DNA from: an uncultured virus (IMG/VR IMGVR_UViG_3300032270_000355)
Taxonomy: Duplodnaviria > Heunggongvirae > Uroviricota > Caudoviricetes
DNA: 64,000 nt
IMG/VR virus record: IMGVR_UViG_3300032270_000355
Direction: 5' to 3' (one strand)
The notes under the pieces were generated by a model. It made no database searches. It was not told the origin of the DNA and worked only from the letters and a program-made list of their open reading frames with translations. The translations under genes and the position numbers were made by a program. Position 1 is the stretch's first letter, and each line of letters opens with the position of its first letter. Shown here one piece after another: positions 37,712 to 44,360 of this stretch.

Positions 37712-38347
37712 TCAAATCGGTATCCAGTGATTCGGATTGCGATATGCACCAACATCAAACAATTTCTCTGCTGGTACTATGTCAAATGCTATTGTTATTC
37801 TTGGTCGGTCTTCAGTCCACTCAGAAGATTTATGTTGGTCATTTCCACTTCTGCTAATAACAATAAGATTATCTTGGCTTGGTACTGTAATAACTTTATT
37901 ATCATGTAGAAATTTATACTGTGTGTAAGAGTTTGGTTCAACATCTAAACAATAGAAACCATGCCATGAATCTGCTTTGGTTTCCCAGTGTCCATGCCAA
38001 TCAATGAAGTCACCTTTGTAATAAAAGTTCAACCAACATTGTATAAAGTAATCATCATACGAATCGGTGTTTACTTCACGAAAAACTTTTTGGATGGATC
38101 TGTAAAGATTATGTATACCTGGAAGTGGGTACATTAGATAATTATATCTATCAAACAATTTTGTAGAGAGTGTTACTTGCCCACTGTATGTTACATCCAA
38201 TGGATCTCTTTCTGTACCAAAAATTGTCGTTGGTGTTAGTTCAAATGTTTTCCCGATGTATGAATGCATGTAGTGTGCAGTTTTTCTTTGCACTTCTAAA
38301 TTCAAATCAAGAGTCTCTGTGTATAAAAAGTTTTCTATTATATTCAT
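37712..38347 (-). CDS. 2OG-Fe(II) oxygenase-like protein
   Basis: QCWLN..DWHGH..HGFY..H..RITIAFD. Confidence 0.75.
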   Translation of the reverse strand: MNIIENFLYTETLDLNLEVQRKTAHYMHSYIGKTFELTPTTIFGTERDPLDVTYSGQVTLSTKLFDRYNYLMYPLPGIHNLYRSIQKVFREVNTDSYDDYFIQCWLNFYYKGDFIDWHGHWETKADSWHGFYCLDVEPNSYTQYKFLHDNKVITVPSQDNLIVISRSGNDQHKSSEWTEDRPRITIAFDIVPAEKLFDVGAYRNPNHWIPI

Positions 38348-38349
38348 AG

Positions 38350-38532
38350 TTACCAATGTCTGATTACACCTGCTATAATAAAGATATTCGCAATGATGTA
38401 AATAGCAACAATGCAAATACGAATATAGGCAACACGATCAGCTTCCTCATCTGTGTTGCCTACTTTTTCTCCGAGTGCTTTGGCTAAAAGCACGAACCAT
38501 GTACTGCGTTTATTTTTCTTTGGAAATAACAT
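38350..38532 (-). CDS. Small membrane protein
   Basis: AKALGEK..EADRVA..R..N.FIIAGVIRHW. Confidence 0.6.
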   Translation of the reverse strand: MLFPKKNKRSTWFVLLAKALGEKVGNTDEEADRVAYIRICIVAIYIIANIFIIAGVIRHW

Positions 38533-38545
38533 ACTCTATTCAATT

Positions 38546-38621
38546 TGGTGCCCTCAGTCGGTTTCGAACTGACCACCTTCTGATTACTAAACAGATGCTC
38601 TACCAAATGAGCTATGAGGGC
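38546..38621 (-). tRNA. tRNA-Thr(AGT)
   Basis: Cloverleaf, loop TT-AGT-AA, encoded CCA. Confidence 0.85.
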
Positions 38622-38643
38622 GATATAACTACTTATGTGCTCT

Positions 38644-38718
38644 TGGAGCAGGATATCGGATTCGAACCGATGACATTCACGTTGGCAACGTGACATTCTA
38701 CCACTGAATTAATCCTGC
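38644..38718 (-). tRNA. tRNA-Gly(GCC)
   Basis: Cloverleaf, CCA. Confidence 0.92.
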
Positions 38719-38719
38719 A

Positions 38720-39193
38720 CTATGCAGCCATGTACGACTTATATCTATCTGCAGCATATGAAGCAGCAAATGCTCTTGGCTTTACCATTGGTACTACGTT
38801 ACACATACCTTTGATATAACCGACTGCTTCATTAATAACACAAGAAGAACCATGCATTTCATTCGGGTTGATGTCCAAATGAACTTGCACTTCACGATCT
38901 TCTAATACATCATGCAACTTTAGATACAACTCTGCAATTTTATAAACTTCGTTCATTAAACGCATACGTGGCTTGTCTCGTTTCTTATCCCAGTCACGTT
39001 CACGTTGTACTTCACCAAAAATCTTACAGCCATTGTTTCCATTGATATGAACAACAACAACCATAATGTAATCTGCGTACCAATCTTTTCCTATTAAGAA
39101 TCGTTCAGAGTCACCACCAATATAGATCTTGGTTTCTGGAGTCTGTGCCAAGATGAAATCTCTAACTTCATCTATGTTGATTGCTTTACGCAT
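38720..39193 (-). CDS. RNase H-like YkuK (DUF458) protein inside the tRNA array
   Basis: IYIGGDS..RLMNEV..VHLDIN..KPRAFAASYAAD. Confidence 0.8.
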   Translation of the reverse strand: MRKAINIDEVRDFILAQTPETKIYIGGDSERFLIGKDWYADYIMVVVVHINGNNGCKIFGEVQRERDWDKKRDKPRMRLMNEVYKIAELYLKLHDVLEDREVQVHLDINPNEMHGSSCVINEAVGYIKGMCNVVPMVKPRAFAASYAADRYKSYMAA

Positions 39194-39227
39194 AACTACC
39201 TCTTTTCTTCTTACCTCATTAAAAATT

Positions 39228-39301
39228 TGGAGCAGAGTGAGAGAATCGAACTCTCAACCGAAGATTGGAAATCTGCTGTTTTACCATTAAACTAACCCTG
39301 C
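39228..39301 (-). tRNA. tRNA-Gly(TCC)
   Basis: Cloverleaf, CCA. Confidence 0.9.
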
Positions 39302-39308
39302 AAAAACT

Positions 39309-39382
39309 TGGCATCCCGATAGGGACTCGAACCCCAACCAACAGTTTTGGAGACTGCTATGCTGCCATTACACCATCGAGAT
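39309..39382 (-). tRNA. tRNA-Trp(CCA)
   Basis: Cloverleaf, CCA. Confidence 0.9.
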
Positions 39383-39386
39383 ACAT

Positions 39387-39461
39387 TGGTGGTGATGAGT
39401 GGATTCGAGCCACTGACCTACTCCGTATGAAGGAGTTGCACTACCGCTGTGCTACATCACC
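39387..39461 (-). tRNA. tRNA-Met(CAT), probably elongator
   Basis: Cloverleaf, paired G1-C72. Confidence 0.85.
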
Positions 39462-39673
39462 ATTGTTGAGAGTACTGTTGTATGTTTAAGCACGTGTTGC
39501 AAATTAGACGTTTAAGGTCATTCAGTTTCTGAACTTTGCCACCGCTCTCCTAATCGTATCGTTCACGTAGCATCAGCAAGCTACTATTTCCCAGATATTG
39601 GGCTGACTTGATAAGGATGGTTATCTTCCATAACAGTTTGGATTGCTTACTCTTTCGCACAAACTCTCAACAA
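39462..39673 (-). ncRNA. Candidate structured ncRNA closed by a 12-bp terminal stem
   Basis: attgttgagagt...actctcaacaat fills the gap between two tRNAs. Confidence 0.55.
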
Positions 39674-39750
39674 TGGTGCCCCAAGCGAGACTCGAACTCG
39701 CAAAATTTGGCTTCTAAGACCAACACGTATACCAATTCCGTCATCGGGGC
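39674..39750 (-). tRNA. tRNA-Leu(TAG), short variable loop
   Basis: 77 nt cloverleaf, CCA. Confidence 0.88.
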
Positions 39751-39757
39751 AAATGCT

Positions 39758-39863
39758 TTCTTTGCGTCGTGGTAATTATAGTACATCAGTTTACTTCTGG
39801 TTTGTGTACATCGCACCAGTTTCTCCATCACACGTACCCTCCACCCACTTGCCACGCAAAGAA
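39758..39863 (-). ncRNA. Candidate structured ncRNA
   Basis: Terminal stem ttctttgcgt...acgcaaagaa. Confidence 0.45.
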
Positions 39864-39996
39864 CTGTCGTGTTGCTAACGCTGGTTAGGTAGACCCATGA
39901 TTTAACTCATGCCCTATTCAAAGGGAGAACCATCCTACTGATCGTCAATCAGTTTCTCTCGTGCGGATCACACTAGCAGTGATTAGCTGCAGGGCT

Positions 39997-40072
39997 TGGT
40001 AGCGGGACTTGGATTCGAACCAAGGATGGCAAAGGCTTATGAGACCTCGCTGGTGACCAGACCCTTCCCGCA
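39997..40072 (-). tRNA. tRNA-Met(CAT), initiator-like
   Basis: Unpaired 1:72, GCGGGA acceptor, reduced D-arm. Confidence 0.75.
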
Positions 40073-40086
40073 TCATTTAATATATA

Positions 40087-40161
40087 TGGCTCCAGTGGCT
40101 GGGATCGAACCAACGACCAATTGATTAACAGTCAACTGCACTACCGCTGTGCTACACTGGA
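40087..40161 (-). tRNA. tRNA-Asn(GTT)
   Basis: Cloverleaf, CCA. Confidence 0.92.
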
Positions 40162-40247
40162 ATAATAAAATCGTGGCAGGTGAGGTATCTAGTCATTGTC
40201 TAGCCAACGACTTGCCCATTCTCCTTTTACTTTCCTTACCACAAAAC

Positions 40248-40322
40248 TGGCGACTCGTGGGAGAATCGAACTCCCATAAGCGGATAGACAATCCGCTGTA
40301 ATAACCATTATACTAACGAGCC
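40248..40322 (-). tRNA. tRNA-Asp(GTC)
   Basis: Cloverleaf, CCA. Confidence 0.92.
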
Positions 40323-40328
40323 AAAAAC

Positions 40329-40421
40329 TGGTGGAGCAACTTGGAGTCGAACCAAGATTGTTTACCCAGAGGGACGAGATTTACAGTCTCGGGATGCACA
40401 CGCCATAGCATCAATTGCTCC
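40329..40421 (-). tRNA. tRNA-Tyr(GTA)
   Basis: Long variable arm, CCA. Confidence 0.88.
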
Positions 40422-40427
40422 ATATGA

Positions 40428-40549
40428 TATTAGTTTAGATGACGCACTATTTGCTATGCTCAACGGGATATCCAGCTGGGTTTACCGTTTCTGTACATAG
40501 TTACTTAGAGTTGACGTTTACTCAATGGCTTACGTCACCTAAACTAATA
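40428..40549 (-). ncRNA. Candidate structured ncRNA
   Basis: 17-bp terminal stem tattagtttagatgacg...cgtcacctaaactaata. Confidence 0.55.
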
Positions 40550-40554
40550 CCACA

Positions 40555-40773
40555 TTTAATTATACTGGGATGTTTGACAAAAATAACAGTTTTGAACCTG
40601 CCCTACCATGCCGTCCATGGACTTGTTTGTCAACCACATTACGTTCCAACTTTATCCAGCGTCCTCCTGATATGATCTCAAGGTTTCGTGTAACTTAGCA
40701 GAGCCTAGCCGTCACTAGGATTTAGTTCTCTACATAAATCACCTACTGGTATTGGCAACCCAATACAATTAAA
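40555..40773 (-). ncRNA. Candidate structured ncRNA
   Basis: 15-bp terminal stem (minus strand tttaattgtattggg...cccagtataattaaa) with G.U pairs. Confidence 0.55.
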
Positions 40774-40775
40774 TC

Positions 40776-40851
40776 TGGTACTCGGTGGGGGAATCGAACC
40801 CCTCCTTCCTGCCGTGAAAGGGCAGTGTCCTAGCCGATAGACGAACCGAGC
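40776..40851 (-). tRNA. tRNA-Glu(TTC)
   Basis: Cloverleaf, CCA. Confidence 0.92.
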
Positions 40852-41066
40852 ATGGTGGTAGTTTTTAGAGAACTACCAAACTCTTGGCTGACCTTTGGTC
40901 ATTTAATGTTTCCTGCTCAGCGTTTTGCATTTCTGCGTGCTTTGCGTTTTGAAACAACCTAGTGGGAGAATGTAAGCGAGTTGCAACATTCAAGCCACTT
41001 GCCCTATGCTTTGTTTCGCAACAAAGACTCAGAAGGGACTTTTGAATTCCTAACCAACTAGACTAT

Positions 41067-41095
41067 ATTATACACCATCTAGGCATTGGTGTCAA
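41067..41095 (-). promoter_or_regulatory. Internal sigma70 promoter in the tRNA array
   Basis: TTGACA-N17-TATAAT. Confidence 0.8.
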
Positions 41096-41121
41096 CAAGT
41101 ATTTTAACTAACTTGCAACTT

Positions 41122-41195
41122 TGGAGTAGGTGACAAGAATCGAACTTGCTTCCATGGGTTTGCAATCCAGTGCCTGTCCAACTGGCTCCACCTAC
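41122..41195 (-). tRNA. tRNA-Cys(GCA)
   Basis: Cloverleaf, U73, CCA. Confidence 0.88.
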
Positions 41196-41202
41196 ATATC
41201 TC

Positions 41203-41280
41203 TGGTACCCCGAGTGAGATTTGAACTCACAGAATTTCTCCTTTTGAGAGAGACGACTTTGCCAATTTGTCCATCGGGGC
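41203..41280 (-). tRNA. tRNA-Leu(CAA), short variable loop
   Basis: 78 nt cloverleaf, CCA. Confidence 0.88.
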
Positions 41281-41283
41281 ATT

Positions 41284-41358
41284 TGGTGGGCTGAGAGAGA
41301 ATTGAACTCCCACTCGATCGATTATGAGTCGACTGCTTTACCATTAAGCTACCAGCCC
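41284..41358 (-). tRNA. tRNA-Ile2/Met(CAT), probably lysidine-type Ile2
   Basis: GGGCTGG acceptor, CTCATAA loop; third CAT tRNA. Confidence 0.75.
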
Positions 41359-41364
41359 AAACTC

Positions 41365-41439
41365 TGGCACGGCATGCAGGAATCGAACCCACATTCGTAG
41401 GGTAGAAGCCTACTGTATTATCCATTATACTAATGCCGT
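41365..41439 (-). tRNA. tRNA-Arg(TCT)
   Basis: Cloverleaf, CCA. Confidence 0.9.
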
Positions 41440-41446
41440 ATAAACT

Positions 41447-41523
41447 TGGTGCGGATACCGAGACTCGAACTCGGAGAACTCAGATTTTAAGTCTGATATG
41501 TATACCAATTCCATCATATCCGC
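41447..41523 (-). tRNA. tRNA-Leu(TAA), short variable loop
   Basis: 77 nt cloverleaf, CCA. Confidence 0.88.
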
Positions 41524-41529
41524 AAACTC

Positions 41530-41619
41530 TGGTGGAAGATCAGGGAGTCGAACCCTGTGACCCAATTCCTTGAATCTACAGTTTAGCAAACTGCTGCATT
41601 ACCGTCCTGCCCATCTTCC
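41530..41619 (-). tRNA. tRNA-Ser(GCT)
   Basis: Long variable arm, CCA. Confidence 0.9.
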
Positions 41620-41624
41620 TAACT

Positions 41625-41699
41625 TGGCACCCAATGAGAGAATCAAACTCCCAACCCAGCGTTCGTAGCACTGTGTGATATTCATTTCACCAATCGGGT
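41625..41699 (-). tRNA. tRNA-Arg(ACG)
   Basis: Cloverleaf, CCA. Confidence 0.85.
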
Positions 41700-41704
41700 A
41701 TATC

Positions 41705-41796
41705 TGGCGGAAGACAGAGGAGTCGAACCCCATCCCATTTCTGAGAACCGTGTTTTCAAGGCACGTCGCAGGACCAACCCCGCTGCATTATCTTCC
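41705..41796 (-). tRNA. tRNA-Ser(TGA)
   Basis: Long variable arm, CCA. Confidence 0.9.
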
Positions 41797-41802
41797 TTAA
41801 CT

Positions 41803-41877
41803 TGGTACATCGTGACAGTTTCGAACTGCCGACCCTCTCGGTGTAAACGAGACGCTCTACCACTGAGCTAACGATGC
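41803..41877 (-). tRNA. tRNA-Val(TAC)
   Basis: Cloverleaf, CCA. Confidence 0.92.
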
Positions 41878-41885
41878 AAAAACTT

Positions 41886-41960
41886 TGGTGGACCGAGGGG
41901 GAATCGAACCCCCAACTGTGCCTTGCAAGGGCACTGTGTTCCCAATTATACCATCAGCCC
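41886..41960 (-). tRNA. tRNA-Ala(TGC)
   Basis: Cloverleaf, G3.U70. Confidence 0.92.
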
Positions 41961-41967
41961 AAAATAC

Positions 41968-42041
41968 TGGTCTCCGATGCAAGAATCGAACTTGCGCTCC
42001 ATGGTCCCAAACCATGAGTGATACCATTTCACCAATCGGAG
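41968..42041 (-). tRNA. tRNA-Pro(TGG)
   Basis: Cloverleaf, CCA. Confidence 0.92.
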
Positions 42042-42049
42042 TAAAAACT

Positions 42050-42123
42050 TGGTGCCCCATGACAGAATCGAACTGCCGTAACCTGATTACAAAACAGGTG
42101 TAATACCATTATACTAATAGGGC
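42050..42123 (-). tRNA. tRNA-Thr(TGT)
   Basis: Cloverleaf, CCA. Confidence 0.92.
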
Positions 42124-42129
42124 GAAACT

Positions 42130-42204
42130 TGGTTCCCGATAGTGGTAACGATCCACTCGCCTATCGCTTATCAAGCGATTGCTCTACCTCTGAGCTAATC
42201 GGGA
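42130..42204 (-). tRNA. tRNA-Ile(GAT)
   Basis: Cloverleaf, atypical T-loop ATCGTTA. Confidence 0.85.
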
Positions 42205-42211
42205 CTATTCT

Positions 42212-42287
42212 TGGTGCTGCCTAGTAGAATCGAACTACTTTCCGAGGATCTTCAGTCCCCTGCTATGACCACATCAGCTAAAGCAGC
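42212..42287 (-). tRNA. tRNA-Phe(GAA)
   Basis: Cloverleaf, CCA. Confidence 0.9.
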
Positions 42288-42289
42288 AT

Positions 42290-42364
42290 TGGGGTGTCGT
42301 ATGAGAATTGAACTCATGATGACGGAATCACAATCCGTAGTTTTACCACTAAACTAACAACACC
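42290..42364 (-). tRNA. tRNA-His(GTG)
   Basis: Cloverleaf with G-1:C73. Confidence 0.9.
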
Positions 42365-42369
42365 ATAAT

Positions 42370-42443
42370 TGGTAGGAGCACAGAGAATCGAACTCTGGTT
42401 AATAGGTTAAAAGCCTACTACTTTACCACTAAGTTATACTCCC
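42370..42443 (-). tRNA. tRNA-Lys(TTT)
   Basis: Cloverleaf, CCA. Confidence 0.92.
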
Positions 42444-42521
42444 ATATAAAATCACACTTCGGATACTGTACTAAACAGAAACTATCCACCACAGGCTATC
42501 CTGCTGAAATGTATTTTTATA

Positions 42522-42595
42522 TGGCAGAGGGTACTGGGATCGAACCAGTGATGACAGAGTCAAAGTCTGTAGTGTTACCGCTACACTAACCCCCA
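42522..42595 (-). tRNA. tRNA-Gln(TTG)
   Basis: Cloverleaf, CCA; first tRNA of the array. Confidence 0.9.
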
Positions 42596-42611
42596 ACATT
42601 TGGTACGCAAA

Positions 42612-42624
42612 TTTTTAAAGAACA
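42612..42624 (-). promoter_or_regulatory. boxA (NusB/NusE antitermination site)
   Basis: TGTTCTTTAAAAA, close to the rrn boxA TGCTCTTTAACA, just before the first tRNA. Confidence 0.7.
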
Positions 42625-42665
42625 GGGCGAGATCTTATCTCATGTTGACACTATCGTCAACCCCT

Positions 42666-42705
42666 TAAAACAAAAAACCCTCTAACTTTTCAGGTAGAGG
42701 GTTTT
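42666..42705 (-). terminator. Attenuator intrinsic terminator
   Basis: AAAACCCTCTA-loop-TAGAGGGTTTT followed by TTGTTTT. Confidence 0.88.
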
Positions 42706-42730
42706 GGGAAATAAACTTTGTCTGTTTACT

Positions 42731-42856
42731 TTACTTTCCAAAACCCCCACTGTCCAACTCAATCGCAAATGTATACTGTGGGCGTGAGCATGTCCAACCA
42801 CTATTAACTAGCGGTAGATGCTTTCTGCTTAACGAGGATATCATTTTCGAGTTCAT
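42731..42856 (-). CDS. Attenuator leader peptide (41 aa, all 20 amino acids)
   Basis: MNSKMISSLSRKHLPLVNSGWTCSRPQYTFAIELDSGGFGK*; leaderless start; 3' end overlaps the antiterminator arm. Confidence 0.8.
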   Translation of the reverse strand: MNSKMISSLSRKHLPLVNSGWTCSRPQYTFAIELDSGGFGK

Positions 42857-42862
42857 TGTAGA

Positions 42863-42891
42863 ATTCTATTCTTCTTTCGGATTAAAGTCAA
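42863..42891 (-). promoter_or_regulatory. sigma70 promoter of the leader/tRNA operon (leaderless)
   Basis: TTGACT-N17-TAGAAT; ATG at 42856 is 7 nt from the -10 box. Confidence 0.8.
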
Positions 42892-42927
42892 ACTTACTTT
42901 TAATAACCTTACATTTCGTAGGGTTGT

Positions 42928-42991
42928 TATTTATATAGGAGTTTTTCATCACTACAGCACCTATTATACAGTACTATTTGATGAAAGTCAA
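42928..42991 (-). promoter_or_regulatory. Additional upstream promoters: T4 late TATAAATA (42935-42928) and sigma70 TTGACT-N17-TATAAT (42991-42963)
   Basis: Direct motif matches. Confidence 0.7.
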
Positions 42992-42994
42992 CAA

Positions 42995-43564
42995 TTATTT
43001 TAAAAGAATTGCAACTTCTTCTGGTAGGACTGGTACATCCATTCTCTCTGGATGCCACACAATACCATAAATTGGCAGTGCTTGATGTTTGAATGCTTCG
43101 ATTGTTTTGTCTGGTTCATGTATGGCAAGTGGAACCATTTGTGGACCAAGTTGTGTGATGGTTTGTCCATGATAACTATTGACAAGAACTTTCTTGCCAT
43201 CCATCATTACTTCATGCTCAGTGTTATCATGCGCAGGAATATAATCGTAACACGTACTACTACTATTCACACCACCACTCAACTCATTGACAACAAATGC
43301 TCCATGGCATATACCAAGGATAGGTTTCTTGCGTTTGATTGCATGGACAAATAAAAGATTCTCTGTAACATTTCTTGCTGCACTATCAGTTCCACCAGAC
43401 AGCACTAAACAATCAAAGTCGATAGTTTCATCAACTGTTCTTGTATTTGCATGGGGGATTAAATGATGATTGCCTAGGAAAGAATACCAGCTTCTTTCTA
43501 GGCAATCGAATAAAAAATTATTAGGAGGGATCCGAAAATCCCTCATTGAAATCAAAATTTTCAT
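42995..43564 (-). CDS. Class I glutamine amidotransferase (peptidase C26/PuuD-like)
   Basis: LSGG..PILGICHG..VNSYH..WHPE. Confidence 0.9.
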   Translation of the reverse strand: MKILISMRDFRIPPNNFLFDCLERSWYSFLGNHHLIPHANTRTVDETIDFDCLVLSGGTDSAARNVTENLLFVHAIKRKKPILGICHGAFVVNELSGGVNSSSTCYDYIPAHDNTEHEVMMDGKKVLVNSYHGQTITQLGPQMVPLAIHEPDKTIEAFKHQALPIYGIVWHPERMDVPVLPEEVAILLK

Positions 43565-43580
43565 AACAAAGAAATGTTAA

Positions 43581-44360
43581 TTAAGCAGCGAGTGCTTCCT
43601 TAGCATTAAACTCAACACATAGTTCACGATGTGGTTGACCATATCCTTCTACCATGATTTGTTGAACTTCTGGAGAAGCAGTCTTGAAATCACCCAATGA
43701 AGTGCATGAACACTCAAATAGATCCCAAACCATTTCTTTAACCAAAGACAAACATTCTGCCTGCGCTTCTGGAGTAGTAACAATTTTCTCAAGCATCAAA
43801 CGACCGATATTGCTATGAAACTTTTCGTCACGAGCAACACGATCATAACGCTTCTGAATGAACTCATCGCCAGCACATTGTGCCATTGTGTTCCAAACGT
43901 GAGAAGCACGACCTTCAGCCATGTACTGATACAAGTGCATCATGATTGGATTACCATGAGCCTCATACTTCTGGATCAAAGATGCGCCCATACGGACATC
44001 AACTTTACCATAAGTTTCCCAGATTTTTTCTAGGTTTGGCTTTTCACCAGTTAGATGCTCAAGAACTTCGTATACAATACGGAAGTGCTCAGCTTCGTCC
44101 CATGCTTGCTTAGAAAGCAAACGGCACTCTTCTGGATCTGTTAGGGCTGGTAGTTCAGAAACTTTCTTAGAAAGTTCGATCATGTTCATACGCTCGTTAG
44201 AGAGACGAATATGGAAGAAGTTTTCTAGGGCTTCTTTGTCTTTACCTTTTTCTGCAAAGAACTGACGAGTTTGGATCTCGGCAACTTTATGCAAAGGCAT
44301 GAAAGATTCCCATAGATCGTCTAAAAATTCTTTTGCTGGTTTAGCTGTAGTAGCTGTCAT
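43581..44360 (-). CDS. Ferritin-like diiron protein
   Basis: NE..DEAEHF..AEG..DEKFHS (two ExxH motifs). Confidence 0.8.
   Translation of the reverse strand: MTATTAKPAKEFLDDLWESFMPLHKVAEIQTRQFFAEKGKDKEALENFFHIRLSNERMNMIELSKKVSELPALTDPEECRLLSKQAWDEAEHFRIVYEVLEHLTGEKPNLEKIWETYGKVDVRMGASLIQKYEAHGNPIMMHLYQYMAEGRASHVWNTMAQCAGDEFIQKRYDRVARDEKFHSNIGRLMLEKIVTTPEAQAECLSLVKEMVWDLFECSCTSLGDFKTASPEVQQIMVEGYGQPHRELCVEFNAKEALAA

Follow-up and report, generated by a model that had tools for sequence, protein, structure and literature searches.

Leader-peptide attenuators control several amino-acid operons of enterobacteria, well-known examples being trpL, hisL, pheL and leuL as well as the multivalent thrL and ilvL. 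Here we describe a locus on the minus strand of a 64,000-nucleotide stretch of DNA from an uncultured virus of the Caudoviricetes (IMG/VR record IMGVR_UViG_3300032270_000355; the whole stretch is hereafter called the window), in which a leader open reading frame (ORF) of 41 codons precedes an array of 28 tRNA genes. Like the enterobacterial attenuators, the locus combines a short leader ORF with an intrinsic terminator and with an antiterminator that shares bases with the 5' arm of the terminator, and a ribosome at the stop codon is predicted to favour termination. We regard a ribosome-mediated transcription attenuator at the head of the tRNA operon of a T4-like phage as the most plausible reading, with a probability of about 0.7. 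Unlike the enterobacterial systems, the leader contains no runs of a single codon and instead has roughly a single codon per amino acid for all 20 of them, and the genes under its control would be phage-encoded tRNA genes rather than genes for biosynthetic enzymes. It further differs in an apparently leaderless start, in the lack of a conserved 1:2-type anti-antiterminator among the leaders compared, and in the lack of a match to the Rfam leader families. What appears to be new relative to the known attenuators is the absence of codon runs, the full amino-acid set and the tRNA genes of a phage as the target.

Other described systems share part of this design. In antibiotic-sensing stalling attenuators, slowed translation of the leader relieves termination, the triggers being ribosomes with a bound drug and certain nascent peptides; no feature of the present locus suggests either a drug or an arrest peptide. 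T-box riboswitches work without translation, through direct binding of a single uncharged tRNA. They resemble the present locus in reporting tRNA charging through a choice between terminator and antiterminator, whereas here one translated frame would sample all tRNAs, and no T-box match was found in positions 38000-44000. The leaders of rrn operons carry tandem strong promoters and use boxA antitermination, and to our knowledge they do not hold a translated attenuator. As in rrn-type operons, strong consensus promoters follow A/T-rich regions, and a boxA-like element, TGTTCTTTAAAAA, stands before the first stable-RNA gene, but here it lies downstream of the decision point. We take the likeness of TGTTCTTTAAAAA to the boxA of rrn antitermination as an assumption of our own.

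The closest tested precedent for a sensor of many amino acids is probably the upstream ORF (uORF) of mycobacterial whiB7. According to the accessible part of PMC10274678, efficient translation of this uORF leads to a rho-independent terminator while stalling leads to an antiterminator and read-through, the uORF of M. smegmatis holds all amino acids except Cys, and removing its Trp or His codons abolishes the matching starvation response. The same part of that paper presents an Ala-rich uORF with a variable amino-acid set and does not report it as selected for completeness (PMC10274678). The whiB7 system controls a transcription factor in Actinobacteria, whereas the target here is tRNAs in a T4-like phage, and Ala occurs only once in 34 of the 54 leaders aligned below. 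The leader would thus work like the whiB7 system without being a member of that family, the likeness being one of design.

The reason for the large tRNA sets of phages has long been sought. Such sets have now been tied to tRNA-targeting host defences, and the accessible parts of the papers that do so describe no regulation of phage tRNA arrays (PMC10264068, PMC11555353, PMC11464382). The words "attenuat-", "leader", "promoter" and "terminator" do not appear in the accessible part of PMC10264068, which deals with phage tRNAs and host tRNases. In the full-text literature searched, a scope outside which subscription journals lie, we met no description of a leader ORF or attenuator on tRNA arrays of phages or bacteria. 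An earlier note on this DNA had supposed that the arrangement was undescribed; this stands, in the literature searched, for tRNA genes and for phages, but not for the principle, as sensing by a uORF of mixed composition has been tested for whiB7 (PMC10274678, accessible part).

The genome is phage-like and T4-like, encoding a gp32-type single-strand DNA-binding protein and a baseplate tail tube cap. The features of the locus are listed below in the order of transcription; promoters were called as matches to a sigma-70-type consensus of 12 bases.

43564-42995, minus strand: gene for a class-I glutamine-amidotransferase-like (GATase-like) or peptidase C26-like protein (Pfam), the first of the locus features
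42991-42963, minus strand: P1, promoter-like site TTGACT-N17-TATAAT, matching the consensus at 11 of 12 bases and lying just past the GATase-like stop codon
42925-42905, minus strand: short hairpin AACCCTAC-GAAAT-GTAAGGTT followed by a T/A-rich run, between P1 and P2
42891-42863, minus strand: P2, putative leader promoter TTGACT-N17-TAGAAT, 10 of 12 consensus bases
42856-42731, minus strand: leader ORF, 41 codons plus TAA, all 20 amino acids by codon 35
42817-42797, minus strand: hairpin 1, within the ORF (codons 14-20), CTACCGCTAGTTAATAGTGGT, with conserved pairing and covariation
42796-42779, minus strand: near-invariant motif TGGACATGCTCACGCCCA, seen in the alignment
42748-42697, minus strand: predicted antiterminator hairpin, its 5' arm made of the last five codons, the stop and sequence beyond, its 3' arm being TTTCCCAAAACCCTC
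42705-42672, minus strand: predicted intrinsic terminator AAAACCCTCTA...TAGAGGGTTTTTT, ending in six U, -15.8 kcal/mol
42660-42632, minus strand: P3, promoter-like site TTGACG-N17-TAAGAT, 9 of 12 consensus bases, between terminator and boxA-like element
42624-42612, minus strand: boxA-like element TGTTCTTTAAAAA, immediately before the first tRNA
42595-38546, minus strand: tRNA array, 28 tRNAs for all 20 amino acids (26 found by ARAGORN, 2 by Rfam)
42595-42522, minus strand: tRNA-Gln(TTG), the first tRNA (ARAGORN)
41796-41709, minus strand: tRNA-Ser-TGA, found by Rfam and missed by ARAGORN, identity read by eye
41195-41125, minus strand: tRNA-Cys-GCA, found by Rfam and missed by ARAGORN, identity read by eye

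What the earlier note had given as positions, peptide and pairing proved correct on the minus strand throughout, and its count of 28 tRNAs was reproduced by ARAGORN and Rfam together.

In the proposed mechanism, a sigma-70-type promoter would start the RNA at, or one base from, the leader AUG. In the antiterminator, the last codons (Gly-Gly-Phe-Gly-Lys-stop) would supply the 5' arm, and the 3' arm would double as the 5' arm of the terminator. A ribosome keeping pace would reach the stop and hide the 5' arm; the terminator would then form and transcription would end before the tRNA genes. If the ribosome were delayed at about codons 8-33, or never started, the antiterminator would form instead and RNA polymerase would continue past the boxA-like element into the array. 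As the leader holds every amino acid, mostly once, together with both codon boxes, a shortage of almost any charged tRNA should raise transcription of the tRNAs. That termination responds to stalling is our inference, as is the identity of the natural signal, which is taken up below. The attenuator interpretation was already put forward in the earlier note, and it finds support in conservation, in the keeping of the reading frame, in a null model for amino-acid coverage and in constrained folding, all of them sequence-based.

Relatives of the leader were gathered in four ways. A search with the neighbouring GATase-like protein found 41 viral contigs, of which 14 (L002-L006, L008-L014, L040) have the same gene order through to tRNA-Gln, and a peptide-motif scan contributed further loci. 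A DNA pattern for both arms gave at least 119 stretches, many of them unrelated; with a stricter pattern, 101 were found in metagenome contigs and two in genome contigs, both in metagenome-assembled genomes (MAGs). Extraction by the arm motif yielded 418 hits, from which we kept the 182 that have a frame with the Gly-Trp motif, the other 236 being unrelated arm-like sequences. The hits kept correspond to 79 distinct peptides (36-46 residues) and 108 distinct nucleotide units, all from uncultured viral and metagenome contigs. Promoter, start-site ATG, ORF, antiterminator and terminator recur across the 108 units, every one of which has a leader ORF of 36-46 codons. A same-strand tRNA lies downstream in 95 units, tRNA-Gln(TTG) being the first in 94, and the remaining 13 units offer at most 700 bases of downstream sequence; the leader is strictly linked to tRNA arrays. 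In 31 of these 95 units the distance from terminator to tRNA-Gln is 49-54 bases with no promoter-like site between, so that read-through would be the only nearby route into the array.

The GenBank phage collection gave no match by blastn (1201 bases) or by tblastn of the peptide (E up to 1), and no cultured relative was found in it. None of 36 members matched Pfam, the best E-value against PHROG was 0.29, and among 5.8 billion predicted proteins the leader peptide falls in only three clusters, all unnamed. The cmscan of positions 38000-44000 against Rfam (E up to 1) returned only tRNA-like hits and none in 42600-42900, with neither a leader family nor a T-box among them.

Several lines of evidence indicate that the ORF is read as codons. 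The spacer between the CACG..CA motif and the GGTTTTGG arm, measured without reference to any ORF, takes nine lengths from 27 to 48 bases, and in 91 of 92 distinct cores its length is divisible by three. A broken reading frame was found in none of the 108 units. In the window, P2 consists of TTGACT (42891-42886), a 17-base spacer and TAGAAT (42868-42863), the ATG at 42856 is the seventh base downstream of the -10 hexamer, and no Shine-Dalgarno sequence precedes it. In the relatives the ATG follows a -10-like hexamer at a distance of 6, 7 or 10 bases, so that the mRNA would be leaderless or nearly so, as judged from consensus matches. In some clades an internal Met comes after the only Cys, and a peptide begun at that Met drops to 19 amino acids; the promoter-proximal ATG was therefore taken as the start. 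We infer that the ORF is translated from this leaderless start.

The leader of the window contains all 20 amino acids by codon 35, Asp35 being the last new one to appear, and the ORF translation bears out what had been claimed on this point. For a single ORF, such completeness is compatible with chance. All 20 amino acids occur in 68 of 12094 natural 41-residue stretches of the window's proteins (0.56%) and in 1.0% of random draws from the window's codon usage, and although the leader alone has them all among the 203 ORFs of 30-50 codons in the window, one such short ORF per window is about what chance predicts. With P of about 0.006-0.01 per 41-codon stretch, a figure whose estimation the earlier note had proposed, the leader alone is not significant; given 203 short ORFs, significance can come only from comparison within the family. 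It is the relatives, and they alone, that confirm the observation as real and not a product of chance.

Completeness is kept in the family to a striking extent: 67 of the 79 peptides have all 20 amino acids, 12 have 19 and none has fewer. The residue missing from the twelve is Val in eight, Cys in three and Gln in one, and these leaders look like recent losses. In every one of the 79 peptides the coverage is complete upstream of the antiterminator arm. Pairing fixes a Phe codon within the arm, and every peptide has at least one more Phe upstream of it (two copies in 74 peptides, three in 5). To follow single residues we used an alignment of 54 nucleotide-distinct leaders, from which L055 had been dropped (its locus ends before the U-tract) and in which one duplicate had been collapsed. 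Exactly one copy is present in 54 of these leaders for Trp, Tyr and Asp, in 52 for His, 51 for Cys, 44 for Gln and 38 for Val. The columns occupied number 16 for Val, 11 for Gln and 4 each for Cys and Tyr. On a FastTree tree of the alignment, the minimum numbers of placement changes are 10 for Cys, 26 for Val, 14 for Gln, 7 each for Tyr and Glu and 5 for His, counts that are rough because the tree rests on 221 columns; the tips without the residue are two for Cys, five for Val, one for Gln and none for Tyr, Glu or His. The comparison suggested in the earlier note thus gave the predicted outcome, a short ORF with 20 amino acids kept despite a mean peptide identity of about 54% and frequent relocation of single-copy residues.

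A tree-aware null was constructed in which the columns evolve independently at their own observed frequencies and the root is forced to hold 20 amino acids. At the rate nearest the observed divergence, an average of 9.6 of the 54 tips keep 20 amino acids under the null, against 46 of 54 observed, and 46 was reached in none of 1500 runs at each of the rate settings 2, 4 and 8; an over-conservative setting, at which the sequences are far too similar, gives P = 0.012. As this null fails, conservation of columns does not by itself explain the coverage. Codon boxes are also kept in the aligned leaders: both boxes of Leu and of Ser in 54 of 54, Arg CGN in 54 and AGR in 47, Ile ATY in 54 and ATA in 47, and Gly GGY in 54 and GGR in 49. 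An internal Met is present in 41 of 54. Selection appears to act on the composition of the peptide rather than on its sequence.

The codons of the window's leader also match the array. Under conservative wobble rules (A or G is read by U34, A34 counts as inosine, and one initiator, one elongator Met and one Ile2 are assumed for the three CAT tRNAs), array tRNAs can read 39 of the 41 codons, and 27 of the 28 are used. Natural stretches of 41 codons in the window use 18.9 of the tRNAs on average, and not one of the 12032 reached 27. When the peptide was held fixed and synonymous codons were redrawn, 27 was reached in 4.7% of draws. The count agrees with that of the earlier note, whereas the identity of the unmatched tRNA depends on the rules, being Val-TAC here and Thr-AGT there.

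The end of the ORF can enter two mutually exclusive structures. GGGGGTTTTGGAAAG (42748-42734) pairs with TTTCCCAAAACCCTC (42711-42697), and the latter overlaps the 5' arm of the terminator; the antiterminator 3' arm shares nine bases, AAAACCCTC, with the terminator. The last codons, the stop and the sequence beyond pair with a stretch ending in CCAAAACCC(TC), which is the start of the terminator stem. The antiterminator has a predicted energy of -20.0 kcal/mol in the window and a mean of -22.0 kcal/mol over the leaders, being present in 54 of 54, and the terminator stem with its U-tract is likewise found in 54 of 54 (mean -17.4 kcal/mol). The antiterminator is the more stable of the two in 53 of 54, and the RNAalifold consensus consists of the antiterminator and the internal hairpin. 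In all 54 leaders the antiterminator arm begins 13-22 bases before the stop codon.

The earlier note had also proposed a look for covarying arms, and like its other computational tests this one spoke for the attenuator. In the terminator, four pairs have compensatory changes and 96.4% of cells are paired; when arms were swapped between leaders, the cognate arms paired more stably in each of the 21 cases, with a mean advantage of 4.7 kcal/mol. In the antiterminator, 99.5% of cells are paired and one pair has changed on both sides. Its core is invariant, and synonymous sites are frozen only where they are paired: three third codon positions in the paired core are the same in 54 of 54 leaders, and one unpaired third position in the arm varies (A in 26, T in 16, C in 12).

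How the position of a ribosome would affect the fold was modelled by constrained equilibrium folding of the window's leader, a ribosome-sized stretch being held unpaired. The predicted base pairs were as follows.

Free RNA, no ribosome: antiterminator pairs 15, terminator pairs 0
Stop codon in the A site: antiterminator pairs 0, terminator pairs 11
Ribosome stalled at codons 11-33: antiterminator pairs 12-15, terminator pairs 0-4
Ribosome stalled at codon 35 (Asp): antiterminator pairs 7, terminator pairs 9
Ribosome stalled at codon 37: antiterminator pairs 0, terminator pairs 11

A footprint at the stop therefore flips the predicted fold from antiterminator to terminator, and stalls at codons 11-33 leave the antiterminator in place, as masking of the last codons had been expected to reveal. 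In these models the position of the ribosome would decide the fold, a geometry that fits an attenuator.

Two further elements lie within the ORF. Hairpin 1 is paired in 95.8% of cells and has two covarying pairs (AU 27, GC 14 and GU 11 in one; CG 27 and UA 16 in the other). Cognate arms paired better in 28 of 33 swaps, and the hairpin is weak or different in one clade; it is possibly a transcription pause hairpin. Directly after it, the near-invariant motif TGGACATGCTCACGCCCA, of the form TGG-N7-GC-N-CACGC-N-CA, has frozen third codon positions and variable first positions, which argues for a constraint at the level of DNA or RNA and not of the peptide. The motif is perhaps a pause site, and RNAalifold found no conserved pairing partner for it. 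We make no claim that CACGC is an elemental pause, since its register, compared by eye with the pause consensus, is off by one. A candidate anti-antiterminator in the window, CACGCCCAC with GTGGGGG, was set aside as a conserved feature; it was seen in the centroid and in one constrained fold (codon 6) and is not kept in other clades.

Some observations weigh against the attenuator or restrict what it could do. In arm-swap tests of the antiterminator, the cognate arms were better in only 26 of 38 cases, a modest result, and since the core is invariant almost no covariation is available. RNAalifold revealed no conserved anti-antiterminator of the 1:2 type among the leaders, so that untranslated RNA would read through, unlike in trp. 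The Asp codon lies four codons before the Phe of the arm in 78 of 79 peptides, where a ribosome would mostly lead to the terminator; Asp is probably sensed poorly. At least one promoter-like site lies between terminator and array in 64 of 95 units, and where such sites intervene, as in this window, the attenuator would modulate a basal level rather than act as a gate. P3, which the earlier note had overlooked, is the site concerned here; it is found in L002-L006 and absent from L008, and if active it would provide an input to the array of this genome that is independent of the attenuator. Of three leaders without Val (two) or Cys (one), none has lost the matching tRNA, tRNA-Val or tRNA-Cys still being in the arrays. 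Several positions of the peptide are invariant, as would also be seen in a functional peptide.

This last point leads to an alternative, that the ORF is an ordinary small protein gene, whose 41-residue product has a function of its own (e.g., binding a host or phage factor), whose terminator merely ends the transcript and whose upstream hairpin stabilises the 3' end of the mRNA. Its invariant residues (M1, L14, P15, G20, W21, R25, F39, G40, K41), strictly preserved frame and own promoter and terminator would all be expected of such a gene. The invariant residues, however, coincide with the RNA elements, namely hairpin 1, the CACGC motif and the arm, where third positions are frozen and first positions vary, whereas the other segments are variable, contain indels and have an uncorrected pN/pS of about 0.70. 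A peptide function explains neither the selection for all 20 amino acids with relocation nor the obligatory second Phe. The peptide has no family in Pfam or PHROG, and its gene is strictly linked to tRNA arrays, 31 of 95 of which have no other promoter-like site nearby; we consider this explanation very unlikely. An even less credible alternative is a non-regulatory element, in which a short non-coding or incidentally coding RNA and a leaky terminator insulate the tRNA operon from upstream transcription and translation is irrelevant. The promoter-like sites past the terminator in 64 of 95 units could indeed make the leader dispensable, and tandem promoter-plus-hairpin modules, described below, resemble the generic architecture of stable-RNA operons. 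Nevertheless, the triplet periodicity of indels (91 of 92), the absence of broken frames and the kept 20-amino-acid coverage are not expected of a non-coding RNA, and the stop codon always falls within or just after the 5' arm.

If the attenuator is genuine, what it senses is a separate question. One reading keeps the mechanism and narrows the signal to product feedback on the phage's own tRNA supply: codons poorly served by the host would open the array early, and accumulated phage tRNAs would close it. The fit between leader codons and array tRNAs, which resampling of synonymous codons equals in only 4.7% of draws, and the keeping of both codon boxes for Leu, Ser, Arg, Ile and Gly speak for it. 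Leaders that lack Val or Cys and keep those tRNAs speak against it, as does a near-invariant Ser codon, TCC (52 of 54), which the array Ser tRNAs do not read under the conservative wobble rules; we find product feedback doubtful. It is attractive to speculate, tentatively, that the attenuator is a phage-encoded surveillance switch over the whole tRNA pool, in which an attack on any single tRNA, or a shortage caused by host shut-off, would stall the leader ribosome and derepress the replacement set; this is possible, and we would not put it higher. The attackers would be anticodon nucleases (PrrC, RloC) and retron or PARIS effectors. If this is the case, a single copy of each codon class would make a general, signal-agnostic trigger of counter-defence.

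Whatever the signal, a leader that samples every amino acid would make expression of the array homeostatic, and it would demonstrate selection on the composition of a peptide rather than on its sequence, which leaves a clean signature. An element as small as this (about 230 bases) could serve as a reporter of global decoding stress. The family also illustrates that a widespread, conserved coding element escapes both gene callers and family libraries, as the three unnamed clusters among 5.8 billion proteins indicate.

The boxA-like element recurs as the motif [TA]TCTTTAA[AC]AA in 73 of 95 related units, which suggests processive antitermination of the rrn type on a phage tRNA operon, downstream of the attenuator. 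Upstream of the leader, P1 is kept in L002-L009, and the hairpin at 42925-42905 may serve to insulate or to terminate weakly; in L010-L014, promoters are preceded by hairpins that resemble it. We observed repeated modules in which a strong promoter, preceded by an A/T-rich region, is followed after about 60 bases by a hairpin of the CCCTAC...GTAGGG type. One copy lies upstream of the leader here (42991-42905), and two to four tandem copies are found between the leader terminator and tRNA-Gln in some relatives (L010-L014). A 28-codon ORF upstream of the leader (42952-42866) was treated as chance; in L002-L006 and L040 it continues in frame into the leader, but in L008 it has no start codon.

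Among the relatives, the two leaders on MAG-binned contigs, L209 and L210, bear the labels Verrucomicrobiota (53.5 kb contig) and Saccharibacteria (2.2 kb contig); these are probably phage contigs swept into bins and not evidence of a host. In L100 (1388-1570 and downstream) the U-tract of the terminator is interrupted and the first downstream tRNA is Arg-TCT, not Gln; this may be a decayed or rearranged copy.

Within the array of the window, a perfect consensus promoter, TTGACA-N17-TATAAT (12 of 12), is present at 41095-41067 on the minus strand just after tRNA-Cys, so that the array may have internal entry points, and an RNase H-like ORF lies between tRNAs (39193-38720, minus strand). Elsewhere on the minus strand are a gene for a TctC-family solute-binding protein (45434-44457) and a phage tmRNA (15242-14882, starred by ARAGORN) with the tag ANDSQFALAA. 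A tmRNA is also found in the relative L016 (5062-5463), with the tag ANDELFALAA. Unusually long genes (94-95 bases) called as tRNA-Ile(TAT) occur in related arrays, at 1684-1777 in L312 and 3974-4068 in L313; the array of the window has three CAT tRNAs rather than tRNA-Ile(TAT).

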